A DNA stretch of 64,000 bases from Vermamoeba vermiformis (Eukaryota), in NCBI GenBank assembly GCA_045837725.1, contig JBEWZL010000294.1, forward strand, positions 186,001 through 250,000. The letters are read 5' to 3'. The notes below the pieces were generated by a model. The model saw only the letters and a list, made by a program, of their open reading frames with translations. It did not search any database and was not told the origin of the DNA. Below, in pieces: positions 1 through 43,700 of this stretch (position 1 is the first letter of the stretch; each line of letters begins with the position of its first letter). A program made the translations under genes and the position numbers.

Positions 1-3000
1 GTCGAACGACAGCAACGAGTCCACCGAGCCCTGGTTGACTGTATTGTATGGCGAGCCCTGGTTGATCGTGTTGAATGGCGAGCCCTGGTTGATCGTGTTG
101 AATGGCGAGCCCTGGTTGATCGTGTTGAGTGGTGAGCCCTGGTTGATCGTGTTGAGTGGTGAGCCCTGGCTGATGGTGCTCAGCGGCGAACTTTGCGTCA
201 CGTGCTCGTTGGTGTGCAGCGGACTGGACGAGTCAGGCACGTGCTCGTTGGTGCTGGTCGGCGTGCGCTTTTTCTTTGCTTTAGTTTTCTTGGTGGCACC
301 TTCGAACAGCAGTGCGGCCATCAATTCCTCTTGCGTGGGCTGGTGATTGACAGGTGCCACTTGATCACGTGCTCGCACACTCGGACTGGCGCGCGGTGGT
401 GTCACAGTGCCAGGCGTGGACTCACGTGGTGCGGAATTACTCGGCGTGACAGGAGTGACAGGTGCCACTGGCTTGGGCGCGGCAGCTCCGTAGCCAGATT
501 TCGACCAGGGTCCACTGACCTGCTTGAGACTCGCAGCGGAGAGTGGTCCCGAGGGCACTGCGGCAGGCGTGGTGGCACTTGGCACGTTAAAAATAGACTT
601 GCTCTCCTCGGCAGTCTGCTCGAAGATTGATCCGCTCGATTTGGTGGCACTTCCCGTGGTGGGTGGTGCTTTGTAGGTCTCGAAACGCAAAGACTGTTCG
701 CGGCCAGGCTGCACTCCCGATTTGGTAGTGTCACGTGATGTATCCACGCGCTGATAGTCACGTGCTCCTTGACGCAGTGCTTGGCGCGTGTACTCGTCCA
801 AAAATGTCAATTTGCGATCTACTTTGACGGGTCGATCGAACAACGTGGCTAATTTGGACACAATCACGTGATCGCGCGGGAGATTGTTCAGGATGGTTAC
901 CAAATTAGTCAAGTCACGTGCAATTTGCTGAGTGACCACGTGACGCGAGGCAGTGTATTTGAGCACAGTCTCGAGGGTGGTCGAGGAGACAGGTGCCACC
1001 TGCCAGTCACGTGACACGCGCTTGGCGAGTGCCATCAGAATCCACGCGCGCACTTCACCGCGCGAGTACTGTCGGTCGAGCAGATCTGTCAACATGTCAC
1101 TCGCGGTCACGTGACGATATTGCTCGAGATCGCGCAGGAGATTTCCGTACTCGCCGAGAATCCACGCAATGACTTGGGCCAGTAAGTCGGGCACGGATTG
1201 TTCTTGCAGCTTGTCATTACCATTTTTGGCAATGAGGTATTTCATGGCGTGCTTGACCGCGTGACGGCGCAGCGTGAGATCTTGCTGGAGATCTCCCGTG
1301 CCAGTCTGCAGCACGGTGAGCAGCTGATCGAGGTGCGAGGGTTGCACCAATTCTGCGCCTAAATATAGACACTTGAGCATGGCAGCAATGTACCAGGCAG
1401 GGGAAGGTGCAAATTTCTCGCAGAGAGCGGTGATCTTGCCGATGAGATCGCGGCGGAGATAGAGGTCCGTGCTGCTCTTGAGGTGCGCGAGCATCTTGGT
1501 GACGACGAGCGTGATGTTCTTGGGGCCCGTCATCTTGTACAAGAGCTCGAGGGTCTTGCGCTGAATGGAGTCATCGGGGTCATTGAGACACTTGAACAGC
1601 AGCACTTGGTGTTGAATCACGTGGCGCGGATTGATCTCGATCAGATCGGACAGCGAGTGCAGCGCCAAGTACTTGAGATTCGGATCTTGCGTGGCACTGC
1701 GCGCACGTGTCGACTGCGCACTGACACCGCTCTTGGGATCGAAGGTCAGCATGTGACTCACGTGCGTGGCAGCCTCGTCGACCAGGGCCTCGGTGTTGCG
1801 ATCATTTGCAGCGTGCTTGTAGACGCGCACAATGGTGTTGACCGTCTCGTGCAGCACCGAGTAGGCCGCGTTGTAGCTGGCAGTGTCCGAGTTCTGCGTG
1901 AGGTACGCGATCGATTTGTTCAGCGTCTCGTGCAACACGTGGTACAGATCACGTGCGGCACTGGCGTCGAGTTGACCGAGCACACCGAAGATCTTCAACA
2001 GCGATATTTGCAGCCACGGTGCAGCGACGCGGTGATAGTCGTAGTCTTTGAGGTGATGGTCCAGCACTTGCTTCTGGATCGCACTCAGCGCACTCAACAG
2101 CTCGCGACGCGTCTTGGCAGTGAATCGCGCACCGTATTTGGCAATGAGGGGCTGCAGCACCGAGACGACAGCCATCATGACAGCAGGGTCCTTGTCGTAC
2201 AGCGCGGCCAGCAGTTTGCTCCACAGTCCGTGTCCTGCTTCGAGCTCTTCTTCCACGCCCGTGCTGTCCTCGCCGATCACGTGCTCGTGCAGGGCAATGA
2301 AGTGACCAATCGCGTGCACGGTCCACTTGCGAATCAGTGCGCGCGGGTGTTGCAGCAGGGCACAGGTCGGCTCTACCAGGGCTGGTGCTGTCTCGCGCGT
2401 GACGAGTGCGCTGAGTGCCCCGAGAGCAGCCCACTGATCGAGTATGGAACTGTTCTCGAGATCGCGGCGCAGACTGTTGGTGGCCAGCACGGACCACTCG
2501 CCCACGCCGCGCAGACACAGCGACGCGCAGATGTAGGCGACTTTCTTCTCTGAGGTCTTGGCCTCTTGCGTGGCACTCAATGCAGTGACGTAGGCATAGG
2601 GCACAGGTACTCCTAACATCTCGCAGTAGACCATGCGGATCAGCACCTCACGCAATTTCTTCTACAATTTCAAATAAATATGAGCAACTGTCATCAGGAA
2701 TATTATTTGTATTAAAGATGTAGTATAAGTATTGTAGCATAGCACTTGCTACTAGCAACAAGGATAAGCAAGCCAGCCAAATTCATCAAAAAAATAATGT
2801 AATTGACAAGTCAGATCTACCTTGTTATCAATAGGCTGAGCGAGCGTTTGTTTGAGTTGCTGCGACTCTTTCAATATGATAGCAGACTCCTCTTGCTTCG
2901 AGCGCGCCTCACCAATGTTCTTGATCAGCTCGAAGAACTCTTTGGAGACTTGACCAGCCCCGAGACTGGTGAGCCAGGTCGAGAGCTCCTGTTTGAACTG

Positions 3001-5569: not shown

Positions 5570-7539
5570 TTAATACAATAGCTTGGACATGTACGGGCCA
5601 TCGAGTTCGTAGCCCAACTTCCTGTAGTAATGACGCGTGCCCACACCCGCAATCACCGCCAGTTTGAAGCTGCCGTGCTCTTCGCGTGCAATGCGCTCTG
5701 CCTCTTCCATCAACAGCGTGCCATAGCCCTGGTGTTGGAACAGCTTCGGATCGCGACTGTGCAGCGGTACTGCTGTGCCGTACACGTGCAGTTCACGCAC
5801 AATCGAGACGCGCGGTCCGTCCTCGTCCTCGGCGTGATCTCCGAGCTCGGTGGCACCTGTCAGTGTGCCTTGGGGCTCGTCTTCGTCCTCCTCCTCGCGC
5901 TCATCGCTGCCCGTGGTGCTGGTGTTGTTGCTGTTGAGCGTGAAGGGTGCAGTCAGTTCGGGTCTGAATGTGGCCGCGCTGCAGCGTCTGAGTCGCAAGA
6001 GGCCAATCAGAATGTCCTGCTTCGGATCTTCGTACGACAGGAAGGTCTCCCAGCCTCCATTCGCGTTGTAGTCGCGACGAATCAGCTCCACTTGATCGGG
6101 CTTGACTTTGTGGTGTATGTCCTTGATGCCCACTTCACGCGTGCGCACATCGCGACACTTGTAGCCGAGGTCGTGCATGCGCTTCAAACACAACTCGCGC
6201 AGATTGCCGTACTCGACACCTGACGTCACTAGGGGCATGGGGATGTCGCGTTGAATGCGGTAGATGCGCGTCCAGGGCGGCACGAGGGCCAACAACTTGG
6301 CGAGCAAGTCGACGAGCTCATCGGGGTGATAGTTCTTGTACTTGCCTGCCTTCCACAGCTCGTACAGGCCAGTGCCGCGAATGACGAGTGTGGGATAGAT
6401 CTTCAAGCCGTCAGCGCGGAACTTGGGGTCCTCGAAGAACTGCTTGAAGCCATTCATGTCGCGCTCGTAGCCTACATTGGGCAAGTCGGGCATGAGGTGC
6501 GACACGACTTTGAAGCCTGCGTCCTTGGCGAGATGAAAGCACTCGGTGACTGCGCGCACGGTGTGGCCGCGATTGGTGTCACGTGCCACGTCCTCGTACA
6601 CGGACTGCACGCCAATCTCCAAGCGCGTGCAGCCGTAGCGCAACATTTCACCGAGATGTGGCTTGAGACAGTAGTCAGGACGCGTCTCAATGGTGAGGCC
6701 AATGCACTTGACATTGCTCTGCTCCATGTACTTGACGGCCTCGTCCACGTTGTTGCTGCAGTGACCGGACAGCGCGTCGTGCAAGTTGCGGATAAAGTAG
6801 TCTCGGTAGTCGGCTGCGAGCGACATGAAGGTGCCACCCATCACAATGAACTCCACCTTGTCCGTAGAGTGGCCGAGTCGCTTCAGTTGATCCACACGAT
6901 TGCGCGTCTGCAAGTAGGGATTGTAACGCGCTCGAATGGCGCGCATGGATGTGGGCTCGTAACCCGTGTAGGACTGCGTGCTGTATTCAAAGTCACTGTC
7001 TGGACCTCCAGGGCAGTAGATACACACATTGCCAGTGAGTGCAATATGCGGACAGCGATGTGGCTTGGACATGACTGCAACCACTGCGATCTGCGACAAA
7101 TCTCAGAATAAATCGAATTGTTTGAATAATCGAGAAATAATGGCTTATACGATTATAATTATAATTGATTTGGATATTACAGTATACGTAAAATAAAATA
7201 GAGTTTAGTTAACTTACACCGGATGCAGTTCGAACAGGTTTAGCTTTGATTTTTGGTAATATAGCGCTTTTATATTGTTCAGGAATGGCTGCAATAATAT
7301 CGATAGTTTTTGGTTGGCGTGGCAAGCCATTCTCACGCGCAGCATCGATTTTAATTTTGGACAGATTGATCGACTTGCCTTCTTTGTGCGCGGTGATGAG
7401 CTGATTAACAATCTCGCCTATAATCTGCACCATCTTGCCGGTGCTGTTTGGTACCTCTTCTGCAACCATCAACGGGTTAATGACTAGATCCAGTCGTAAT
7501 CATTGTGTGGTACTTACTGCCTTTAGCTTTGGTGGCCAT
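5570..7539 (-). CDS. ELP3: Elongator complex protein 3 (radical SAM + KAT)
   Basis: [64 protein letters not shown] and [10 protein letters not shown]...FQHQGYG...[16 protein letters not shown]. Putative 34-nt first intron 7517-7484 and a second intron at about 7217-7091. Confidence 0.97.
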
Positions 7540-8659: not shown

Positions 8660-8971
8660 AGGCCGTTGTATTGGTGCACTTATGTATATAGAGTTGTATT
8701 AGAGGCTCATTGTTAATCTGTACTGGAAAGCTATCATCGCAATAAAGCACTTGTTCCTTTAGTCGAGTATGGTCGGTCTTAACTGACTCATCTTATTCAT
8801 TCAAATAGCTCACATGTATCGTGCATACCCTTGCAAGGTACGGCATGCGACATCGGTTATTAAGTCGGTTAATAATAATTACGCGTGCACGAGTATCAAG
8901 GTTGAATTCTCAGAACACTCGATTTATCTGCGTAGCAACAAGTGAGCACAACTCCACTTAGAACAGCGAAC

Positions 8972-10604
8972 ATGGAACCACCCAAGAATATACTCGTCAA
9001 GATACCACCGCTCATGGTAATTAGCAAGATGTTGCTGTGAACTGACTGCAGATCTGATTTTTAATTTAATTTTATTGTAGTACTTGCATGTGCTCAACAG
9101 AAATTCGCAAGTAGTGAGAGTCGAGGTGGTGAGTATCTATTTATTGTAATTGAGTCAAATAATTTTATTAGTCTTTAATTTCGTTCCTTGAAAATTCCCT
9201 TCAAATCCGCGTCTTAACACCAGCATTAATCGCATGTTTGAGTAGGGACCACAAACATTTTTCTGTCGTCAGGAAGAGCAGGTCCTCACAGGTCCCACCA
9301 ATATGATCGTCATTCCACCCCGTCACTACACGGTGGTTGAGAATCCAGTGGTGCGCGATGAACAGGGCCACGTGGTGCTCGATCGATTCGGCCAAGCTAA
9401 ATTAAGACACGGCGATGAAGAGGTGCGCGAGAGCCAAGACCCATTCCCGCTCTGGCCCGGTGAGCGCGTCAAATCCGGCATTCAGCCGCTGCAGATCGTG
9501 GAAGTGAACACCGCGCTGAGACTGCAAGCAGTGCGCGACTTTGACGACGAGATTGAAGTGCCACCACGTGACGCCAAGAGCCAGCCCACACGTGTCAAAG
9601 TGTCGCGCCACGCGGGCGAGGAGTGGCTGTTCTTGGGCCCGCAGACCTATCACCCGAGTCCCAATGTGCGCGTGGTGCACACGGTCAAAGCGCAGGTGAT
9701 GCAGCCTGGTGAAGGTGCGTGAGTGACAGGTGACACGTGTCAAATACTGACTTGTACAAACTACTAGCTCTGCGACTGCGCGCACGCAAAGACATGACAG
9801 ATGTCAACGGGAAATCTCGCCGCGCAGGTGAAGAGTGGCTGTACCGCAGCGAGGGGTGAGTGCCAGCATTACCTAATTAGGCAATCACTGACAGCAGTGC
9901 AGTCTGTACATGCCGCACGTGGATGAAGTGGTGCTGGGCGTGGAGCGCGGCTACATTTTGACCGAGAAGAACGCGCTGCACTTGGTGGCCAATCAGAGCT
10001 TTGTGGACATATTTGGCAAGCCGAGATTGGCGGGAGATCAGTGGCTCGTGACACGTGCTGACAGCGAGGTCTACATCCCCGACGTTCATGAACGCGTGCA
10101 CAATCAAGTGTCCCTCGTGTCCCTCACCAAGCGTCAGTACTGCATCATTCAACACCCCTACGACAGCACGCGGCACGTGACGCAGTGGGGAGCACAGCGC
10201 GTGCAGCGAGGTGTGGGTGACGAGCACGTGGACAACTTCTTTCTGCGCCCTGGTGAAGAGCTCGTGACGCAGAGCGAGGTGATTGTGCTCAACGAGGACG
10301 AGGCACTCAAACTCCGCGCGGTGCAGGGTAAGCATTTCCTAATTTGGTGCGGCTATTCATAGCTCTTGCAGAGTTCGACGATCAGGTGCCGAACAGCGAC
10401 AAAACAGTGCGACGCAGACCCGGTGAAGTGTGGTACATCTACGGCCCTGCAGAGTACTGGCCGTGTTTGGAAGCACGCATCGATCGGAGAATTCGCGCGA
10501 TCAGAATTGAAGGACTGCGCTGGTACTTGTTCCGTCCTGACAAAGTCGTGCTGGCCGTGCTGGCATTCTTCGCGCTCTTGGTGCTGCGATACATCTTGTT
10601 TTAA
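8972..10604 (+). CDS. Truncated major vault protein-like protein (7 vault repeats plus C-terminal hydrophobic tail)
   Basis: KIPPLMYLHVLNRNSQVVRVEVGPQT, IPPRHYTVVENPVVRD...QDPFPLWPGE, ALRL...AGEEWL...GP, ALHL...AGDQWLV and PGEVWYIYGPAEYWP match MVP repeats R1-R7. The frame ends VVLAVLAFFALLVLRYILF*. Confidence 0.88.
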
Positions 10605-10674
10605 TTGTAATTAGATACTTATTAAACCTTTGTACCATGACATTGTCTCGCTGTCTTTGCATGAATTTTCTCAT

Positions 10675-10720
10675 TTTCGCGCGGGTCTTCTACGCGGGAA
10701 TTTAAAAATTTCATTTCAAA
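10675..10720 (+). promoter_or_regulatory. E2F-like sites plus CHR-like element upstream of the CH-coiled-coil gene
   Basis: TTTCGCGC at 10675-10682, GCGGGAATTTAAA at 10694-10706 and TTTCAAA near 10714-10720. Confidence 0.4.
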
Positions 10721-10828
10721 ATCAAGTTTCACTGACACGAGCATTTGATTAGTACGTTGTGTACATAGGACCAACTAGGGTGATATTCATTTACTCTACA
10801 CGCAACAGTTCTACAGCAGTACACTCAG

Positions 10829-13800
10829 ATGTCCTCTCATAATCAGGTACGCAATTTCTTCGTATTGCAATTAAATATAAGTAGCATAATATATAAAAAT
10901 ATATTTGGTAATTACTACCTATTACAATATTTGAAATTGAAAATTTTTTAAATACTTATTAATAATAATTAAATAATTCAGATCCTGATTGAATGGCTGA
11001 ACTGGGCCCTCACCAAGCCACTAATACTGCCTCGTGGCTACGAGCCCTCCACTGACATAGCTCGCGTTCAAAATCTCGATGAAGATCTGCGCGATGGTGG
11101 CACGGTGCTCGAAGTGATCATGCGGCTCGAACAAGCACGGCGCGGCATTCACAGCGCGCAACAGCACGGCGAGGCACTCAGCAGCGAGGCCCTCGGTGTG
11201 ATTGAGTACAAGAAGCGGCCCAAGAGCGAGAAGTTCAAGCTGCACAACTGGGAACAGATCCAGCACGTGCTCGACACCGCACTGCAGTCACGTGATCTGG
11301 TGGCAGGCGTGCCAGGTGCCACCACTGCCCTGGTAGAACAGCTCGTGCAGCGCTACACCATTGGTGACAGCAATCACCTGCGCGAGTCGCTGCTTGACAC
11401 GTTGACACCGCACCGCGCACTCGATGCGGCTATTAATAGCGCTGTGGAGACACTGGCTGTTGAGTGGCAACTCTCGTGCGTACCTCACTCTGACACGTGT
11501 CATCTAGTCTTCGCACTAACAATCTCATTTGCAGTGCATTTGCAGATCCACTCGTGTGGCTCGCAGTGCTCCATCACCGCGCACGTGATGTGGTGGTCGA
11601 TGTGACACCATTCAGTGCTGTAAGTGTCACGTGATCGGGAATTCAGTGAAACTCATTTGTGAACAGATGACGGGCGCGCAGGAGAGGGCTCGTCACGTGA
11701 TTGAGACTTTGCAGAAATTCAAGAGCATTCCTTCTTTGGTGCACAGCGAACAACAGTTGCTAAATTTGGAACAAGAATTGACGCTGATTGACATTCAGCT
11801 AATCTTTGCGTTAATTTTACAAGCAACTGAACAATCTGCTGCACCGACCTCCGAGAGCGAAGAATTGACGAAACAAGTGCAAAGTCAGCAAGAAGAATTG
11901 CAAAGATTAAACGACACCCTCGTGGCACTCGATCAAGAGAAGCACGAGACAAGTCAGCAATTGACAGGTGTCAACGGACAGTTGTTGAGTCAAGCACCGA
12001 GCGAGTCGACCGATGACGCACAACTGCAAAGATTGAGGGCTGAACACGCACGTCTGCAAAGTGACCTCACTGCACGACGCGAGCACGTGACGCAGCGACA
12101 ACAAGAGTTGCAACAGCTGCGCGAACAATTGTCACGTGATCAATCGGCCCTGGCAGAGCGACAGCGAGCAGCGGAAGAATTGTTGGCACAAAAACAAGCA
12201 CGTGACGCAGAGTCCAAGCAGCTCGATGGGGAGATTGCAGCTCTGACCGAGCAACTGCAGCGCGATCAGTCCGAGGAGCACGTGATCAACGAACAGATGC
12301 AACGATTGCGCGAAGAGTTGCAAGGACTCGACGAGCAGTCGCGTGATGCAGAAAAACGCCGCGAGGAGATTCAGCGCGAGATTGAGGGAGAAAAATCCCG
12401 AGCGGAAGAACTCAAGCAGATTCATGAACAGCGCGCACGTGCTCAAGAGTCTGTGACACATCTCCGCGCAGAACAGCAACAACTAGATGAGCGCGTGCAG
12501 CAACAGCGTGACATGTTGACAGGTGTCAAACAGCAGCTCGGAACACTCGAAGAAGAATTGACGCGAGCACGTGATGCGGTGTCCAGCACGGAGCAGGGTG
12601 ATGTGAGTGCCCTGGAAGAGCAGAAAAAGACCCTGGCGGAACAACTCGAACAGCGCCGTGCTGAAGAGCGAGCCCTGGTCGAAGAACTGCAAACACTCAA
12701 GTCACGTGTCGAACAGCTGAGCAGCGAACGAGACCAATTGCGCAGTGAGCAAGAACGAGCCCTGGGAGATCGACAGCGAGCAGCGGAACAACTGTCACGC
12801 GATGTGGAGGCATTATCCACGGAGCTTACCACTGCCACGGAACACGTGACACGAGCACGTGATCAAGAACAGCAGTTAACAGGTGAACTGCAACGATTAA
12901 ATGAAGAGGTGACAGGTGTCAAAGAGCGAACTGCGCGCGAAGAGCAAGAGTTGACAGTGCGCGAGAGTGAGCTGCAAACACGACAGCAAGAACTGCAAAC
13001 AGCCCTGGTAGAGCAGCGCGAGAAGAGTGCGCAATTGACACGTGACATTGAAGCTCGTCAACAGGAGCTGACAGCGGCTAAAAATAGCTCTAGCCAACTC
13101 ACCGACCAACAGACCCAGGTGCGCGAACTGCAGTCACGTGTTAGCGAATTGGAGCAAAGCTTGAGTGCCACCACGCAAGAACTGGAGAGCGAGACGAACA
13201 CGTGTCAAACATTGCAGCAAAGATTGGCGCAGTTGACCGAAGAACTGCGCGCTGGCCCCGGTGAAGATCTGCAAAGATCAATCGAACAGCAGCAAAAAGA
13301 ACAGCAAAGATTGAGTGAGCTCAAAGCACAACTGCTGTCGCAGGTGGAGCAGAAGCGACAGCAGCTGCACGATACCAAATTAGGCAATCACCAACTGAGT
13401 CAACAGATCGAAACACTGCTCGATCAGGTGGCACAGGTCAAGCTGAGTGCGCAACAGCTGCAAGATGATTTGCAGCAGGAACAACTGCAAACGAACAAAC
13501 TCCGCGAGCACGTGGAGCAGCTGCGCGGTCAAGTGACAGATTTGGAAAGTGAACTCACGCAGCGCAGTGATCTGAGTGCCAGTGCCACGCCCGAACAAGT
13601 GCAAAGACTCGAACTCGATCTGCAACAGTTGACAGGTGTCAAACGCAGTGCTGAACAGTCACTGCTCAATGAACGCGCCGTGCAGCAACAACTCGACCGC
13701 GAACTCAAATCTGCAAAGCAACAGCTGATTGACCTGCAAAAGCAAGTGGAGGATAAAAATAGCCTTAAAAATGCGCGCAAAGAATTGAACCGCGTGAAAA

Positions 13801-14612
13801 AAGAATTCGAGGGCAAAATGAAGACAGAACAAGCCCTGATCGATGGTTTGCAGCGTGATTTGCAGCGCGAAGTCAGTGCCACTCAGCGCACACGTCGCGC
13901 CAATGAAGAACTGCAAAAACAGATCAATCATCTGCAAGAAGAATTACGCGTACGTGCGGAAAAAATATCCAATTTGAACGCAGCACGTGACAGCACAGCA
14001 CAAGAGTCACGTGCTTGGGTGAGTCGTGCGGATGAAATTGCACAACTGCAACAACAAGTGACCGAACAGACCCAGTCACGTGTTGAAGAAGAAACACGTG
14101 GTGTGACCTTGACACATGAAGCGGAGAATCTGCGCGAACAACTCGAAGTGACACGTGTCAACACACCTGTCAAGAAGACACCTAAGAAAGTTGTCAAACA
14201 GACACCTGTCAAACAAACACCTTTGAAACAGGAAGTTAACATCCACACTGAAGTGACACCTGTCAAACAGGCACCTGTCCAATCGAATTCGGTGAAACAA
14301 GATGTCAAGACACCTGTCAAACACACACCCGTCAAAGAGGTGTCAAACACTGAACTTGTGACACCTGTCAAACCTCGTAGTGCACCAGTGCAAACACCGC
14401 TCAAACCTGTGGTGCCACCATCAACTGCCAAAAAGAGAAAATCCAAGGCAATCACCAGTTCCGAACCCGTTCACGAACCAACGATAGATCACGTGACAGC
14501 GAATCAGCGCGCAGGCACGGACTGGGCCCTGGTGACAGTCGGTGTCATGTCCGCACTCGCACTAGTGCTCATGCTCGTCAACTGGCAGCAGAATATGACT
14601 GCGCACGAGTGA
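10829..14612 (+). CDS. Calponin-homology-like domain + long coiled coil + TPxK repeats + C-terminal TM helix
   Basis: ILIEWLNWAL...VQNLDEDLRDGGTVLEVIMRL...KFKLHNWEQI resembles a CH domain. About 800 aa of Q/E/L-rich heptads follow, then repeated TPVK/TPLK, then WALVTVGVMSALALVLMLV and a 10-aa tail. Confidence 0.8.
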
Positions 14613-14683: not shown

Positions 14684-16464
14684 CTAGTCCAGTGCCGCGA
14701 CAGCTTTGTACATGGCTGCAGTGAGTGCTGCACGCCGCGGATCATCGAAGTGCACGCCCATCGAATTCATCACGTATGACATGGCTATCTGATGTGTCGC
14801 ATCGCCCCAACCGAAGCTGCCACCAGAACCACTGTGGTAGAACGCGGTGGGATATTTCGGGGTTTTGATGAACCCGGCCCGCGAGTAATTGCGATGGACG
14901 TGTATCACTTCATCACGACCTTCCACTGCCACCTGGGTAGCGTGTTCAATCACCTGCGGGTCTTTGATGAGCACGTGATCATCGACTCGTCCCCCGCAGG
15001 CAAGATAGTTGTACAGCTTGGCAATCTCGCGCGCATTGGATACACCGACCGTGGAGGGCATCTCCAAGTGCAGAAAGGCCTTGTCATCCCACTTGAAGCC
15101 CAAGTTGTTCCATATCTTGAATGTGAGTGAGGTCGGATTCATCATCTGTTTGAAGAATTCTCCTCCCTCGAACGACAGATCTGACAGCAGTGCACCGATC
15201 TTGGAGGGATCAAAAGAGATTAATTGAGCCAATCTGCCGTGTACAATACGATCAGTCAAATTATAACAGGGCTGAATTAATAAATGATGGACACCCATCA
15301 ACATCACGTACTGTGTTCTGTCAACGGAGTCCTCGAGGCGCATGTGAAAGCCAATGCCGAGTGGTGCAGCGATCTCTTCGCGCCAGTAGTCGCTGATCGT
15401 GCGGTGTTGCGGATCAATGCGACGGACCAGTTGTGAAAGATAGAAGCCTACCAATATTGGGGAGTAGCCGTGCTTGCCCTCTGACAGCTGCCACAATGGT
15501 TGCTGTGCCGCCAGAGCTCGTGCCAGAGTGCTGTCTAACGTGACACGTGCCTGCAAATGTGAGCTAAAACGGTGACATGGTGCGCCGTACCTCTTCAATC
15601 ATGGCAACAGTGATAGGCGTGTCTAAATAGGACAGACCTGCTCGATGTGACAGCAGATCTGTGATGCGAATTGAATTCTTGCCAGCAGCACTGAACTCGG
15701 GCCAATAGTCCACCACTCGGTCCTCTAGTGTACACAGGCCCCGATCGATCAAGTGCAGCATGCAAGTGATTGCCTGTAAGATGAGCGATAAATAAGAAAC
15801 AGGTCTTGCTAAAATACTAATAAAGCAATTTTAGATAAAAAGAGAAAGATCTTTTTGCAGATCACCTTTTTGCCTGAATCGTGCTCGTCTGAAGTCGGAT
15901 CGTTGCTAGCTGACAAGAAGCAGAAACTTGTCAACAACAGCAGAATCACAAACCATTTTGTGTACCCTGCTGGCAAGTTTCGGAGCAACCGCGACTTCAG
16001 ATCTGCACGTTTCAGCCAAAAGGAGGTTTTGATATTTTACGTCATTCTTTAAAGCCTCTTGTTATCTAAAACGATTATTTTATGCGACCGTACCATGCCC
16101 TTAGTGGTCGAATAGGTGTTGATCATAGTGTCTTCTTGCCATAACACCTTCTCTGCTGGCTTCGCATAGCCTCCCCACAGATCTACTACTTTTCGACCCT
16201 TGTCTGTTACAAAATCGTTAAGTGGCTAATAGTAAATATTGATAAACACTAATACATACGATACCCAACAAAGCAAGCACCCACTTCATTGCGCGCCTTG
16301 AAGTTTTGAATGAAAGCCTCTAATACTGACTCGAAGCCCTTCGTTACACTGCCGTGCACGTTGAATTCAGCGGAGAGAAGGTTGGTACTCATGGCTCGGT
16401 GTTGCCGTGAATGCTTGCGGACCTGCTGTAATGCTTGGAGGGAACGTGTTACGCACCGTAGCAT
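14684..16464 (-). CDS. Beta-lactamase class C / EstA-family serine hydrolase with putative mitochondrial presequence
   Basis: VVDLWGG, SxxK motif YSTTKG, VVDYWPEF, LLSHRAGL, HGYS and FYHSGSGGSFGWGD. The N-terminus MLRCVTRSLQALQQVRKHSRQHRAMS is basic and lacks acidic residues. Confidence 0.88.
15865..16023. other. Intronic structured element (long imperfect stem plus two internal hairpins)
   Basis: Arms 15865-15907 and 15984-16023 are reverse-complementary. Inner hairpins pair 15909-15917 with 15927-15935 and 15938-15952 with 15957-15972. Confidence 0.7.
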
Positions 16465-17260: not shown

Positions 17261-18175
17261 CTACGCTAATTGTTGCAACAATCGCTTTTCAGTATTTTGA
17301 ACGGCCCATTGATGTTGCACGAGTTCCAAGTTCTCTTTTTCAGCCTTAAAGAACTTCCAGCTTTCAGTCTGCATCTGCATTCCCGCGGTGGGATCCATCT
17401 GTTGCTGCATCATCTTGGTGTCGTCAGCGGCATTGTTCTGGCCGAGGACGAGGTTGTTGACACCACGGAGACCAAACAGCGTGAGCAGGTACCACGAGAG
17501 CGACGAGACATAGGTCGGATCCAACGACGTCAAATCGATGCCGCGCTGCAACATGTCTTTGAAGCCATTGGTGAGTGGAAAGGGCAGCTTGACGGCGACA
17601 AAGCCCGAGAAGAAGCTGTCGACCCACGAGTAGAGCAAGAGATTAGAGACCACCATCGTAGCATTGCGCTTCATCATGTTGGACATGTTGGACGGATCCA
17701 TCATTGGATTCATCATCGGATTCATCATTGGATTGGCTCCTTGTTCTGCTGGCTGACGGGACTTGGTAGTTAATAGTCCCTCTTCACCATTGAAGAACTG
17801 TTTGCGCTTGTTGAATGCTTGCGGGGACAATCTGTGTCCATTGGCGCGCAGTCGTCGTGCTCGCAACAGAATTTGACTGCAATTTAATAGTAATTATTTA
17901 AAATACACTCGTTGATATTGGTGTGACGTTGCAGTAGAATGGAGTGAATAATAATGACGGAGTATTTTTAGATAATTATTTCTTAATTTCTCGCGTTAAT
18001 TCCGCGCCAGCAGCAGTACTTACCCTTCACGAATTTTGTTCAGATCTGCCTTCTTGTCGTTGCTGATAGTACTCGACATGTAGTGGCGGAATAAGGATAT
18101 GAAAAACATTATCACTACAATCGGTATGAGTACCGAATTTCTGATTTGAGGATCAAGCACCAAATCCACAGGCAT
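17261..18175 (-). CDS. EMC3: ER membrane protein complex subunit 3
   Basis: MPVDLVLDPQIRNSVLIPIVVIM...|QILLRARRLRANG...FSGFVAVKLPFPLT..FKDMLQRGIDL..LDPTYVSSLSWY; one intron. Confidence 0.95.
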
Positions 18176-20599: not shown

Positions 20600-21672
20600 A
20601 TGCAAAAGGCCGCTGATACCAAGTATGTGATAATCTGTTACGGTTTAAATACGCGTTAGATAAAAAACACCGCATCCAGATTCGTCGATCGAGATTAATA
20701 ACAATATTTTCAGGGTTGCTGTCCCCGAGACCCTCCTCAAGAACAAAAAGACCGTCGAAAGACGCGCTGCTGAAAAGAAGGAGAGAGTTAAGCAACTCCG
20801 CAAGGTAATTATAACATACAATAATAATTATTAATTATTAAATTATTGGGTTGTGTATTTTGTTTGCTTCTCGTTTATACACTGACTACAGGGCAACAAT
20901 ATTAATATTCATTATTACGCGTAGAAAAACAAAACAAACAGAAAGGTCATCCTCAAGCGAGCTGAGCGTTACGTCAAGGAATACAGAGCGTTGGAGAGAT
21001 CCGAAATCAGACTCCGCCGCTTGGCTAAGCAAGGTGGCAACTTCTACAAAGCTGCTGAGCCTAAGGTTGCTTTTGTTGTCCGCATCAGAGGGTAAGATCG
21101 CAGATCGAATCAACAATAATTAATTTTTTAGTTTGATGGATATAACCAAACATGATATAACTGTTATTCACCGGTTATTATTCTATGCCGTTATTAATTT
21201 ATTGTTCGAATCCAGTATCAACCAAGTCAGCCCCAAGGTCAAGAAGATCCTCCAATTGTTGCGTCTCCGTCAAATCTTCAACGGTGTCTTCGTCAAGTTG
21301 AACCGCGCCACCCTCCAAATGTTGAAGCTTGTCGAGCCCTACATCACTTACGGTGCTCCCAACCTTAAGTCTGTTCGCGAATTGGTTTACAAGCGCGGCT
21401 TTGCTAAGGTCAACGGCCAACGCTTGCCCATCACTGACAACCGCATCATTGAGGAGAACTTGGGCAAACACGGTATTCTCTGCGTTGAAGATATCATCCA
21501 CGAGCTCGTCACTGTTGGTCCTAAATTCAAGGTCGTCAACAAGTTCTTGTGGCCCTTCAAGTTGAACAGCCCTCTCGGTGGCTTCAACAAGAAGTTGACT
21601 CACGTTGTTGAAGGTGGTGATGCTGGCAACAGAGAAGACGGAATTAACGAATTGATCTCCAGAATGAACTAA
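20600..21672 (+). CDS. RPL7: 60S ribosomal protein L7 (uL30), 4 exons
   Basis: VPETLLK...[10 protein letters not shown]...[37 protein letters not shown]...LWPFKL...[15 protein letters not shown]; strongly biased codon usage. Confidence 0.97.
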
Positions 21673-40785: not shown

Positions 40786-43700
40786 TTACGCTTTGTTGAA
40801 CTTGCCAAGCAGTTCTTCAACACGAGCAGTCAAGTACTGCGGCGTCAACTCTTCATCTGACTCTTCGGCGGTGATGGCACGTGCCAAGCGGTGTGACATG
40901 TTGTGCAGTGTGGCTTTGAGCGCTGATTTGTCGCTGCGACGCACCTTCTTGTCTTGACTCGGCGCCATTGTAGCAATTGCACGCAAGACGCGATAAGCAG
41001 CGGGCAAGAGCTCGTTGTCTTGCTTCGACAGGTAGGACTCGACAAAACTGCCAAACTCAGCCGTGGTGACTGCTGATCGGCTGACTACTGCCAACACAAA
41101 GTCCGCGTCGTACGTCAAGCCAGTGCTCGTGGTGGGCAATTCCTCGGGCAAGTTGTCAGGCACGTCAATGTTCTCGATGACACGTGTCAAGACGTGGTTT
41201 ACGAGACTGCGCAGAGCTGAACGTTGTTTGCTGAGCACAATCAAGTCTTGCAAGCGAATAATCTCGTGGTGCCGAGCCATGGCCTCATCAGTGACGTCTT
41301 CTTGGTCTCGCAAGAATGACAGCGTGTCATCAACGAGCTTGAGACACTTCTTGTGCGGAATAATGCTGCTGTCTTCTTCTGTGTCGCCGCGGTGATAGAG
41401 CTGATAGACCAATTTGAACGAGCAGCCAATCACTTGCATCACCGTCTCAGCTACAATACAAACGTTGAATAAATGCGGTATGATGGTAAAGGGCGTTACT
41501 TACTGGACAGGTGCGAGGCACGAGACACCACTGTGGCAGCCATTTCGAGCACGTGACTGATGACACCACCACTGCGAACAAGACGCATGGTGATGACATC
41601 TGTCAAAGTCGTGAACATAGTCAATAAGACGCGTTCAACCAATTGCTGCAATGTGCGTGATTGACGCTTTTCAGTGAACGGAATGACGTGCTCTTCCGTC
41701 CAGTCCACAAAGTCGCCGAATGAGGGCACCTCTTGCGAGGCAGTGCCAGCAACGTGCACCAAAAGTCGCCAGTAAGTGGTCATCAATCGCACGGCACTGT
41801 TCGCCTCTTCTTCGTCAGTCTCACGGGCCTCGAGACTGGCTTCAATAGCGCTCGTCCATTGTTCGTGAAGTGCAACGATGAGTTCTTGGATCTGATCTTC
41901 GTGCAACAACCACTCGCGCAGCTCAGCGTCAGCAATCACGTGATCAATGGTAGTGTTGTTGAGCTGGTCAGTCATGCGGCCCAAGATTGAAGCAGTCTTG
42001 CCCCAGCTGGTCAACAATCTCAACGCGGCACGAGATGCGCCAGTAGCAGAGTCGCTGTTGGAAGAGATGTTCTTGGTCACGAGTGCTGTCACGTGCTTGA
42101 GCAATTTGGGACAGTTCTCGACAGGCATGTGACGAGCAATGGTCCAAACAGCTGTCAACAACTTGGAGCTGGTCTTTTCAGCTGCCTTGGTGGCCATCAG
42201 CAATGCATTGTCGTCCATGACATCGGTCAATATCTTGTACAGGGGTTGATGTTCCTTCTCTTGCAATTGACCAGAGACAGGTTCGAGAATGGTGACAATG
42301 ATCTCAGTCAATGCTGTCGCGGTGTCGGAGTCTTGCAAGCTCAATGAGGCCTCAGCTAGTTTACAATGTCAATACACGGCATTATAAATATTATGGCACT
42401 TACCAGTCTTAGCACGCTTGGCATTGGGCTCCTGGTCGTCCTTGTCCTCGCCAGCTTCAGAAGCATCATCGGGTTTGCTCGCGACACCAGTGACTTTGAG
42501 TTTGTACCAAGGCACGAGAATCTTCTTGAACAGCTTGCCGATGAATTTGACGGCAATGCTAGGCACGAGTTGAGGTGCCAAAGCACGGTAGAACTCGAGT
42601 GCAGCCATGTGATCAGCCTCGACGAGAGTGATGCAACGAATGACCCACTGGCTGGCTGATTTCTTCACGGGGAAGTACGTGTCGGACAACAAGGCCACGA
42701 GACCTTCGACGACTTTGTTGGACTCGGGACTGGTCAAAGCAGCTCCGTCTTGCAATGAGTGCAACGACTCTTCGCGCAGTCTGGCCAACAAGTGATCAAT
42801 TGGCACCACCTCCCAGAACTTGATGGCCTTGATGCGCTTGATCTCGTTCAACAGCAACACAAAGGCGAGTCTGACCTTCTCAGAGCTGTCATGCATCAAC
42901 ACTGCAAGACGTGGCAAGTGCGCCTTCAAGAAGTTGTGTGACAAGTGATTGTCCAGCACGAGTCTCAACGCTTGGAACACTGCTTCGCGCACACGGTAAT
43001 CACTGGCGTCGAAGGCAAGTTCGTCGATCAAGTGCAGCAAGAGCGAGGACTGATAGACTGTTGGCACGAGTTCCCAGTACAGCGACAAGATGCGGCCAGT
43101 AGCGAGCACACCTTTGACGCGCACGAGGGGCACGGGGTCATTCTGCAATTGTTTCACGTGCTCGAGTTGTTCTTCGAGCTGCTCTTGCATGAGACGTGGG
43201 GGCAGGTTAGCCGGCAGCAAGGGGAACACGTAGCCGAGTTGAATGGCAGCGTTGCATCTGACACGCGGATTGGCTACTTTGAGTGACCGCCAAATGATAG
43301 GCTCGTAGAGGCGTGTCAAAAGATCGTCCAACTGTTTGATGCGCACTTTTTCTTCGACAATGCGTGCCAAGATATGCTGCACGGCTTTGAGAATACGAGT
43401 GTTCTTGACGTGAATCGAGTGGTGGATCAGATCTTGCAAGCAGTTGTGTTCTATTATCGATCCACGTGTTAGCTAGTCCATAACTCGGGTTTGATTCTTA
43501 CCAATGCGGACCAAGCAAGCTCCTTGTGCAGCCTTCCAAGCACGCAGATAAATTTCAGCAAAGGCATCGAGCTGAGACTTCTTCGCGGTCGTGATCTGCA
43601 ATAGCTCGTGAGTACAGCAATGCATTGGACAGTGCATGATTGATAACTTACGCCCGACTTAATGGTACGATGCAACTCGTCAACGAGTGGTGCGCTGATG

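Follow-up and report, generated by a model that had tools for sequence, protein, structure and literature searches.

Vermamoeba vermiformis has a real, expressed gene for a short major vault protein (MVP) that comprises vault repeats R1-R7 and very likely is a genuine tail-anchored membrane protein. It belongs to a conserved amoebal family whose probable role is to tie walls of the vault type to the endoplasmic reticulum (ER), and the reading that we moderately favour is that of an ER tail-anchored paralogue of the vault wall, acting as a membrane-side partner of vaults. The source DNA was contig JBEWZL010000294.1 of assembly GCA_045837725.1 (forward-strand positions 186,001-250,000); this whole stretch of 64,000 nt is referred to as the window.

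Gene structure, transcript and selection

The short MVP gene occupied positions 8972-10604 (+) and consisted of six exons separated by five introns, each of the GT..AG type and 44-117 nt long (Table 1). The CDS of 1308 nt encoded a protein of 435 aa. A single RNA contig of X1 (1355 nt, depth 50.7) spanned 8957-10636 without any intron and contained the complete CDS. All four X1 junctions given in Table 1 were found again in X5, and three of them also in X9, a run recorded as RNA-Seq. The row for the joint between exons 1 and 2 was itself left out owing to a masked repeat; the 64-nt intron 1 was judged to be spliced out because just four contig letters separate 9016 and 9085.

The X1 transcript ended 32 nt 3' of the stop codon, where ATTAAA at 10621-10626 may serve as the poly(A) signal. 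No contig or read linked the last exon to downstream sequence among the RNA contigs of X1, X5, and X9. An alternative GT donor within the last exon was used by no contig. The next gene, with its ATG at 10829 (225 nt past the stop codon), had a separate transcript. In addition, the gene is under strong purifying selection: variants in the RNA contigs were synonymous at 14 of 16 sites (pN/pS ~0.04; binomial p 1e-7), including four out of four in the tail segment.

The initial annotation, which was made from the sequence alone, had described R1-R7 ending in a clean stop, with no frameshift in the spliced model and the next gene following after 225 nt. The gene model and the Pfam matches agreed with this description and with its coordinates, and the spliced RNA contigs reproduced all exons. 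Transcript evidence for the last exon and a selection analysis had also been proposed there, and both spoke for the gene as modelled, through the X1 contig end at 10636 with no downstream splicing and the low pN/pS.

Table 1. Features of the short MVP gene of V. vermiformis (window positions).
Feature	Position	Strand	Evidence
5' untranslated start of RNA contig	8957..8971	+	X1 contig starts at 8957; a contig cannot prove the true 5' end
Exon 1, start codon and start of R1	8972..9016	+	Gene model; X1/X5 contigs span 8957-9016
Exon 2, R1	9081..9128	+	Gene model; contig pieces span 9085-9127
Exon 3, end of R1, R2, R3, start of R4	9246..9714	+	Vault_2 6.7e-25, Vault 3.2e-13
Exon 3 joint	9127/9245		In X1, X5, X9
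Exon 4, R4	9768..9855	+	Vault 9.7e-10; joint 9712/9766 in X1, X5, X9
Exon 5, R5, R6, start of R7	9903..10327	+	Vault 3.3e-16, Vault_2 8.1e-06; joint 9854/9902 in X1, X5
Exon 6 first part, remainder of R7	10372..10481	+	Vault 6.9e-06; joint 10326/10371 in X1, X5, X9
Juxtamembrane motif, residues ~396-416	10482..10544	+	Aligns with R8 start of full-length MVPs
C-terminal transmembrane segment (predicted), residues 417-435	10545..10601	+	KD 2.74; AF2 helix 414-434
Stop codon TAA	10602..10604	+	
3' untranslated region	10605..10636	+	X1 contig end at 10636; ATTAAA at 10621-10626

Vault repeats, missing vault parts and the predicted C-terminal anchor

Six Vault/Vault_2 matches were obtained with Pfam in exons 3-6, five of which passed the curated cut-off (R7 scored 26.4 against a cut-off of 27), and R1 was aligned to MVPs by tblastn and MAFFT. 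Compared with canonical MVP (Vault, Vault_2, Vault_3, Vault_4, MVP_shoulder), R1-R7 were ~45-50% identical over ~385-400 residues and had the same fold, whereas R8-R9 past one hairpin, the shoulder, the cap helix and the cap ring were absent. MVP_shoulder (PF11978, SPFH-like) gave no Pfam match in the short MVP, and tblastn with the residues beyond ~411 of three full-length MVPs returned nothing in the 64 kb (best E 6.7). The protein stops at residue 435, and no match to the cap-helix coiled coil or the cap ring was found elsewhere in the window. The precomputed Pfam assignments of tail-bearing relatives were PF17794 and PF01505 only. Since shoulder and cap helix are missing, the short MVP would be unable to close a vault alone. 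The initial annotation had likewise reasoned that a protein cut after R7 builds no normal vault, which is in accordance with the transcript end and the tblastn result. R7 is indeed the last full repeat, but the cut is not exact: ~15-20 residues homologous to the first R8 hairpin survive as a juxtamembrane motif, which was conserved in the family alignment and formed two short strands in AF2 models.

For P0131, the closest relative with a complete sequence (53% BLAST identity), the AF2 model had a mean pLDDT of 92.4 and showed beta repeats at residues 11-407 and a helix at 410-432. The top Foldseek matches of this model were the murine MVP R1-R7 crystals 3GNG, 3GF5, and 3GNF (TM-score on target 0.82-0.85), and phmmer aligned residues 9-394 of P0131 to MVP residues 5-377. 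The murine fragment covers the same span and was the best match to the P0131 model (50% identity), but it is a laboratory truncation, whereas the short MVP is the product of a natural gene and carries the juxtamembrane motif and the anchor. A two-copy complex prediction of P0131, in which the alignment was not used and controls were not run, gave a score of 0.00, which counts neither way as to self-association.

Residues 417-435, with a Kyte-Doolittle (KD) mean of 2.74, formed the sole segment of this kind in the protein. The eight top-scoring 19-residue KD windows all fell within residues 410-435, indicating a single C-terminal span and no N-terminal hydrophobic segment. From the V. vermiformis last exon and the family alignment, AF2 predicted a helix at residues 414-434 (pLDDT 97-98); canonical full-length MVPs, in contrast, have no C-terminal transmembrane helix. 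The uncharged core of the V. vermiformis anchor is just 14 residues long and is followed by Arg, while uncharged stretches in the family are mostly 16-24 residues, usually with K or R next.

A C-terminal [DE]L after a short extension was found in 24 of 86 tail-bearing proteins versus 5 of the 414 other proteins (Fisher p 1.4e-15, with some near-identical rows among them). Just some of these ends conform to the classical K/HDEL retrieval pattern; most are looser (KKEL, QQEL, KSDL, TVEL, and others). Because such ends make sense in no other way, the C-terminus of these relatives would lie in the ER lumen and the repeats in the cytosol. This topology is well supported, and an ER or nuclear-envelope location of the short MVP is likely. 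The V. vermiformis protein itself stops where the anchor stops and has no [DE]L. In its closest relatives, P0131, P0132, and the Arcella-type clade, 0-8 residues follow the anchor, and [DE]L is missing there too. The V. vermiformis protein in particular would thus owe its ER address to its relatives and to general tail-anchor rules, among them that high hydrophobicity of a tail anchor favours the ER route. The tail anchor and the cytosolic display of the repeats had both been proposed in the initial annotation; the high-confidence helix, the same build in dozens of relatives, and the [DE]L ends behind the anchor in many of them all point the same way. No localisation or binding experiment on any family member was found in open-licence PMC papers and bioRxiv.

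The extension-bearing members share with HDEL/KDEL tail-anchored ER proteins a cytosolic N-domain, one C-terminal span, and a short lumenal retrieval tail, but there is no sequence relationship, and the V. vermiformis copy has no retrieval motif. Yeast Sec20 is reportedly an example of such a type II/tail-anchored ER protein with a C-terminal HDEL/KDEL. SPFH cages (erlin, prohibitin, stomatin, flotillin, and HflK/C), which are described as relatives of the MVP shoulder, are permanently membrane-anchored and build rings or cages on membranes (PMC13100048). Their anchor, however, lies N-terminal to the SPFH domain, whereas the short MVP has no SPFH-like shoulder and its anchor is C-terminal to the repeats.

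An amoebozoan family of short MVPs

The initial annotation had suggested a search for vault repeats combined with a C-terminal transmembrane segment. R1-R7 followed by such a tail were present in 48 of 122 proteins examined, so there are at least 48 relatives of the same build. In an exhaustive profile search, the tail was found in 38 of the 150 best cluster representatives, of which at least three look false. A protein atlas yielded generic clusters of vault repeats only. Every named tail-bearing member belonged to Amoebozoa, including Acanthamoeba (XP_004339473.1), Balamuthia (KAL6070840.1), and Pelomyxa (KAH3746010.1), as well as Arcella, Pyxidicula (two copies), Rhizamoeba, Luapelamoeba, Nolandella, Flabellula, Clydonella, and Mastigella. 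The sequences of the family are currently annotated as "major vault protein" or "colicin uptake protein." Full-length MVPs occurred beside the short form in Arcella (P0251 and P0263 with P0123) and Balamuthia (P0302 with P0137). In V. vermiformis, run X1 also contained a second short paralogue.

In a tree of R1-R7, 29 tail-bearing rows including V. vermiformis, plus P0384, formed one clade (SH-aLRT 95), in which V. vermiformis was nearest to P0131 (58% over 374 columns). A single FastTree branch (support 94) divided 51 tail-bearing from 47 full-length rows. One Pyxidicula copy had the extension and the other did not, and both fell into the same clade. A quick tree separated the clade from the full-length MVPs of Amoebozoa, as an ancient, pre-amoebozoan duplication would. 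However, the tree joining the two had a log-likelihood 19.5 higher and was not rejected (AU p 0.72), and we therefore claim no more than that the family arose in the common ancestor of Amoebozoa or earlier. No residue separated the tail-anchored clade cleanly from full-length MVPs (at least 80% versus at most 10%). Within the clade, R1 and R2 were most conserved (entropy 1.41 and 1.27) compared with R4-R7 (1.60-1.77). Some short MVPs (P0370, P0424, P0436, P0404, and P0464) had no anchor and kept the juxtamembrane motif. The composition of P0464 was N-rich, as in Dictyostelium proteins.

Short amoebozoan forms are likewise entered as "MVPshort (truncated MVP homolog)" in Table S3 of PMC12547018 (Dictyostelium DDB_G0282033 and Mastigamoeba MBAL_000468 and MBAL_014565), where they cover ~residues 4-414 of TbMVP1 and stand beside two full-length MVPs and TEP1; the table makes no mention of an anchor, and neither "membrane" nor "transmembrane" occurs in the main text. 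The Mastigamoeba "MVPshort," P0281 in our set, runs as modelled into a CN_hydrolase domain and has no anchor, and this junction is probably a gene-model fusion. No description of a membrane-anchored MVP was found in CC-licensed PMC papers and bioRxiv.

Relation to vaults and competing readings

A cryo-ET study of 2026 reports that Dictyostelium vaults stand upright on membranes of the ER and nuclear envelope, no membrane motif being known for them (PMC13100048). These vaults are ~75 nm long; the membrane-bound ones rise ~50 nm, equator included, above a continuous membrane with no cap resolved, and the contact appears as a thicker ring on an indented bilayer, which the authors view as an intact vault with a rearranged lower cap (PMC13100048). 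The organism is of the same supergroup, the membranes are those predicted by the [DE]L ends of the short MVPs, and the bound vaults have a defined height, so that these vaults may be connected with the short MVP family. In the Fig. 5D source data, Q54T29 was enriched with MVPA-TurboID (log2FC +1.09, q 4.7e-7; TEP1 +1.61 and MVPB +7.49 for comparison; PMC13100048). Q54T29 is DDB_G0282033 (also XP_640422.1), the "MVPshort" of Dictyostelium in Table S3 of PMC12547018 and a putative member of the tail-anchored family. The roles suggested in the initial annotation, which would be those of a membrane dock for vaults or of a membrane-bound ring, gain some indirect backing from the ER-bound vaults and from this enrichment. 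As the tag sits at the MVPA cap and labels within a radius of ~10 nm (PMC13100048), this enrichment says nothing on tip-to-tip docking. The short paralogue is not mentioned in the main text of PMC13100048, in which "paralog" and "MVPC" each occur zero times.

Human half-vault contact positions were taken from PMC13347060 and PMC12280208. The tail-anchored clade had Asn22 in 25 of 28 sequences, an acid at position 39 in 23 (Gln in V. vermiformis), and a hydrophobic residue at position 7 in 26. Position 38 changed from Gln to Leu, Lys, or Met, and position 37 was Cys in 20 of 28, where 10 of 10 full-length MVPs of Amoebozoa have Arg. The contact positions are thus kept only in part, which counts against the favoured reading. 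The cap helix accounts for 144 lateral contacts in the vault versus 132 for residues 1-646 (PMC13347060), and self-assembly of the short MVP into a ring is doubtful because the helix that carries so many of them is missing here.

The gene model, its expression, the purifying selection, the fold, the conserved tail, and the [DE]L ends of relatives are shown, whereas we infer the docking function, insertion route, and oligomeric state and the ER location of the V. vermiformis protein. A rigid all-beta R1-R7 rod would stand in the cytosol, with the R8-hairpin remnant against the membrane and one C-terminal helix within it. As there is no signal peptide, insertion would take place after translation via the GET or EMC route, with the ER and nuclear envelope as the most likely targets. 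The R1 tip, where half-vaults normally meet, would face away from the membrane, and in amoebae the protein would most likely serve vault particles, or proteins binding to the vault wall, as their partner on the membrane side. A functional link to vaults is a tentative proposal, though one that could well prove right.

Alternatively, and with an appreciable but minor probability, the protein works on its own as a scaffold or adaptor on the membrane and makes no contact with vaults, its rod being a spacer or a platform that recruits wall-binding proteins, such as the INT/MINT domains of vault PARPs, to the surface of the ER. The short MVP retains R3-R5, to which the MINT domain of PARP4 binds in human vaults (PMC12280208), and vPARP-clade genes are reported from Dictyostelium (PMC2964712). 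At the four MINT contact positions the tail-anchored clade is like amoebozoan full-length MVPs (K/R at 164, K at 169 in 14 of 28, Q at 172 in 20 of 28, and E at 214 in 11 of 28; K, Q, E, and G in V. vermiformis), and at positions 37 and 38 the R1 tip departs from the full-length form. However, the MINT positions are kept loosely, conservation within the clade is highest in R1 and R2, which fits a role of the tip, and proximity labelling with MVPA enriched the short MVP of Dictyostelium. It is improbable that the V. vermiformis copy is anchored outside the ER, for instance in peroxisomes, lipid droplets, or the outer membrane of mitochondria; such a location would agree with the missing [DE]L of this protein and its closest relatives and with the 14-residue uncharged core with basic flanks, but the high KD value favours the ER, and the two Pyxidicula copies, with and without the extension, share one clade and the juxtamembrane motif is common to the family.

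A far smaller probability attaches to a hydrophobic end that is a buried oligomerisation or amphipathic element and does not span a membrane. The topology is a predicted one, and some relatives stop at the juxtamembrane motif with no hydrophobic stretch; against this stand the 16-24 uncharged residues forming one high-confidence helix followed by K or R, and the [DE]L ends, which on tail-bearing proteins are hard to account for if the end does not reach the ER lumen. Databases contain many truncated MVP fragments, often artefacts (PMC3762200, PMC12547018), yet the idea that the gene is a truncated copy in decay, a wrongly assembled model, or the source of a short isoform from a full-length MVP gene is already contradicted here by the complete CDS in one spliced contig, the separate transcript of the next gene, the purifying selection extending into the tail, the same end conserved across the amoebozoan clade, and the absence of any shoulder or cap match from the window.

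An unlikely but specific possibility is that the "two-thirds vaults" on the Dictyostelium ER and nuclear envelope are hybrids and not intact vaults with a rearranged cap. A membrane-embedded ring of short MVP (R1-R7) would form the lower, capless part of the barrel and hold a normal half-vault docked via the R1-R1 waist contact. The geometry fits: a half of ~37.5 nm in a bound height of ~50 nm leaves ~12.5 nm for the part beneath the equator, and seven vault repeats at roughly 2 nm each come close to this. The continuous membrane, the unresolved cap, and the thicker contact ring fit as well. If so, amoebal ER would bear a membrane-capped vault compartment, and the family would supply the membrane motif that has been missing from vaults.

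To our knowledge, no function has been settled for vaults since they were first described in the 1980s, and we know of no membrane-binding element in them. A conserved paralogue that ties the vault wall to a membrane would be a concrete handle on this function. The family predicts that part of vault biology takes place on the ER and nuclear envelope, makes the short MVP a molecular candidate behind the ER-bound vaults of Dictyostelium, and suggests that short MVPs should count as a separate, membrane-bound class.

Gene structure, expression and surroundings of the short MVP

The window was eukaryotic in character, with short GT..AG introns. The short MVP gene, a proposed tail-anchored copy of major vault protein (MVP) with repeats R1-R7, had a reading frame of 1308 nt in the spliced model, encoding a 435-aa protein. 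Vault_2 and Vault repeats were detected by Pfam in exons 3 to 6, and no Pfam match to the shoulder domain was obtained. The sole strongly hydrophobic segment comprised the last 19 residues (Kyte-Doolittle 2.74), where the protein stops, and the next ATG lay 225 nt 3' of the gene. The initial annotation had described MVP repeats followed by a C-terminal tail anchor and a clean stop, which was confirmed. In tblastn searches of the 64 kb with three full-length MVP queries, the short MVP gene was the only MVP-like gene matched, and no match was obtained for MVP residues beyond ~411 (best such hit, E 6.7), in agreement with the proposed lack of shoulder and cap.

RNA contigs from the public sequencing runs X1, X5, and X9 (X9 recorded as RNA-Seq) were compared with positions 8800-11200. 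A single 1355-nt contig of X1 (depth 50.7) spanned 8957-10636 with all introns removed, and consisted of a 15-nt leader, the whole reading frame, and a 32-nt trailer. Splice joints were found again in X5 (four) and X9 (three), and no contig of the three runs in this region joined the last exon to downstream sequence. An ATTAAA hexamer was located 10 nt upstream of the X1 contig end, although contig ends are not proof of a poly(A) site. The contigs differed from the window at 16 sites, 14 of them synonymous and two conservative replacements; within the tail codons, all four differing sites were synonymous. The corresponding pN/pS was ~0.04 (binomial p 1e-7). The gene is expressed, its introns are removed as in the model, and its coding sequence evolves under purifying selection. 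A second X1 contig (1339 nt, depth 36.2) matched only 9636-9656 and 10033-10050 and was divergent elsewhere; it appears to be another paralogue of short MVP, with a similar transcript size, in the same run.

Among the 98 ORFs with a length of 110 aa or more, 37 were covered by the Pfam scan of neighbouring genes (see table). The gene directly 3' of the short MVP gene encoded a long coiled-coil protein (open frame of 1007 aa from 11589) without a Pfam family match, in which a C-terminal hydrophobic segment was followed by ~10 residues. It had a separate RNA contig starting at 10768, and the splice 10842/10978 was present in an X5 contig. Judging from its sequence, it is apparently a second tail-anchored protein adjoining the first. 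Further, an ORF of the EMC3/TMCO1 family, an ER membrane insertase subunit type, was located ~7 kb from the short MVP gene, a closeness that is probably coincidence.

Features of the window (positions in the window)
Feature	Position	Strand	Basis
Adaptin N-terminal region	1-2661	-	Pfam
ELP3-type radical SAM plus GNAT protein	5573-7102	-	Pfam
Short MVP gene, six exons	8972-9016, 9081-9128, 9246-9714, 9768-9855, 9903-10327, 10372-10604	+	Spliced model
Coiled-coil protein gene	10829-14609	+	
Beta-lactamase-family protein	14687-15598	-	Pfam
EMC3/TMCO1-family ORF	17264-17893	-	Pfam (7.3e-35)
Ribosomal protein uL30	21124-21669	+	Pfam
Condensin II subunit	42372-43472	-	Pfam

Predicted structure and tail architecture

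P0131, the nearest complete relative of the window protein, was used as structure proxy and folded with a 46-row family alignment. The model (mean pLDDT 92.4) contained beta repeats at 11-407 and one helix at 410-432, and its best Foldseek matches were the murine MVP R1-R7 crystal structures 3GNG, 3GF5, and 3GNF, followed by vault cages. By sequence comparison, P0131 residues 9-394 corresponded to MVP residues 5-377. When the last exon of the window's gene was itself folded using the family alignment, a helix was predicted at protein residues 414-434 (pLDDT 97-98). Since only two or three residues separated the last strand from the helix in the predicted structure, the rod should stand near the membrane with R1 at the far end.

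Vault repeats followed by a C-terminal transmembrane segment were also found in other proteins. When exon 3 was used as query, proteins of 434 and 394 aa outranked full-length MVPs and another of 427 aa was placed further down; in each of the three, the protein terminated after R7 in a hydrophobic tail. Their profile retrieved 294 proteins, and the tail was present in 48 of the 122 proteins examined (the best 120 of the 294 matches were listed). When 1.84 billion cluster representatives were searched exhaustively with a profile, 2517 hits had E <=0.001 (407 with E <=1e-30). Of the best 150, 38 were flagged as tail-bearing; at least three of these look false, namely one full-length protein and two unusual sequences. 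Several atlas clusters near P0131 whose few taxon-labelled members were mostly viral (Uroviricota) scored 0.91-0.93, with Vault-type Pfam repeats in 24-35% of members; this is a lead only.

In the common build of the family, R7 was followed by a conserved juxtamembrane motif, which aligned with the first hairpin of R8 of full-length MVPs, then by an uncharged stretch of mostly 16-24 residues, usually K or R, and either a few residues or a longer extension. Among 500 proteins of at least 250 aa, some of them near-identical, 24 of 86 tail-bearing proteins ended in [DE]L (e.g., KDEL, YDEL, KKEL, QQEL, and KSDL) versus 5 of 414 others (Fisher p 1.4e-15). A C-terminal [DE]L has significance only on the lumenal side of the ER. 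Its excess among tail-bearing proteins provides the strongest computational argument that the tail spans a membrane and that this membrane is the ER, and together with the helix at 414-434 it supports the tail anchor proposed in the initial annotation. No such extension was found in the window's own copy and its nearest relatives. Pyxidicula had two copies, one with and one without it.

Eight database proteins (P0370, P0367, P0424, P0436, P0404, P0384, P0365, and P0464) kept the juxtamembrane motif without an anchor, ending in a short, often basic, non-hydrophobic tail or right at the motif; the latter applied exactly to P0464, which is N-rich like Dictyostelium proteins. These may be a real anchorless sister class, or models and ORFs from unspliced DNA that miss the end. 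In Mastigamoeba balamuthi P0281 (m51a1_g468, 696 aa), R1-R7 and the motif were joined to a CN_hydrolase domain without an anchor. As an anchor comes after this motif in the closely related P0241 and P0242, the P0281 model is probably a fusion of neighbouring genes.

Distribution and phylogeny

All named family members were amoebozoan, including Acanthamoeba castellanii (XP_004339473.1 / L8GWT3, 477 aa, annotated 'major vault protein alpha, putative'), Balamuthia (KAL6070840.1), Pelomyxa (KAH3746010.1), and, in EukProt, Arcella, Pyxidicula, Rhizamoeba, Luapelamoeba, Nolandella, Flabellula, Clydonella, and Mastigella. Full-length MVPs were present beside the short MVP in Arcella and Balamuthia. 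In a FastTree of R1-R7 columns, from hand-picked rows leaving out most fish MVPs and unclassifiable fragments, one branch (support 94) split 51 tail-bearing from 47 full-length rows. A quick IQ-TREE of 74 rows placed 29 tail-bearing rows, including the window, and one apparently truncated row in one clade (SH-aLRT 95), and amoebozoan full-length MVPs in a separate clade (support 98); three tail-bearing and five anchorless short rows fell elsewhere on weak branches. The window sequence grouped with two sequences adjoining Tubulinea members. Holding the two clades together scored better and was not rejected (AU p 0.72), so the simplest history would be one duplication with truncation at or before the amoebozoan ancestor.

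Possible relationship to ER-bound vaults

No publication on a membrane-anchored MVP was found among CC-licensed PMC papers and bioRxiv. Daly et al. (PMC3762200) mention many MVP fragments. Table S3 of a study of trypanosome vaults (PMC12547018) lists 'MVPshort' for Dictyostelium (DDB_G0282033) and for Mastigamoeba, in addition to two full-length MVPs and TEP1; membranes are never mentioned in its main text. Members of the family are present in databases with generic names, and one supplementary table lists them, but no description as an anchored class was found. In Geissler et al. 2026 (PMC13100048), 14 of 999 Dictyostelium vaults stood upright on ER or nuclear-envelope membranes. These were ~50 nm high, equator included, with the lower cap unresolved, a continuous bilayer below, and a ring of increased thickness at the contact site, and according to the authors, the vault has no known membrane-associating motif. 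According to their Fig. 5D source data, the Dictyostelium short MVP (Q54T29) was significantly enriched with MVPA-TurboID (log2FC +1.09, q 4.7e-7), changing in the same direction as MVPB (+7.49) and TEP1 (+1.61); it is not discussed in the main text.

The data show that the protein is expressed, constrained, and conserved, that it has the fold of R1-R7 and a C-terminal helix with transmembrane properties, and that many relatives carry lumen-type ends. Such a protein would be inserted post-translationally into ER and nuclear-envelope membranes; its rod would be cytosolic and its R1 tip would point outward. We favour a function as membrane-side partner of vaults. In the boldest version, a ring of short MVP would substitute for the lower half-vault in ER-bound particles, which we consider unlikely. 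Dictyostelium vaults are ~75 nm long, which places the membrane ~12.5 nm from the equator in bound particles. Seven MVP repeats, each presumably roughly 2 nm in height, would come close to this distance.

Several observations argue against the vault-partner function. Human MVP waist-contact positions (PMC13347060, PMC12280208) were only partly kept: position 37 (window residue 38), which adjoins the residues joining two half-vaults, was Arg in all 10 amoebozoan full-length MVPs but Cys in the window protein and in 20 of the 28 clade members; of 26 further full-length rows, two had Cys. In addition, the window protein had no acid at position 39. The cap helix missing in short MVP makes 144 lateral contacts, versus 132 for all of residues 1-646 (PMC13347060), and the TurboID tag was at the cap (PMC13100048), far from the site of the proposed ring. 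The existence of short MVPs without an anchor also speaks against this function. A serious rival is that short MVP is an adaptor for wall-binding proteins, with which the loose similarity of PARP4 MINT-contact positions between the clade and amoebozoan full-length MVPs is consistent. Overall, the family constitutes a membrane-bound version of a known protein and, as it may be connected with the recently described ER-bound vaults, merits study by experiment.
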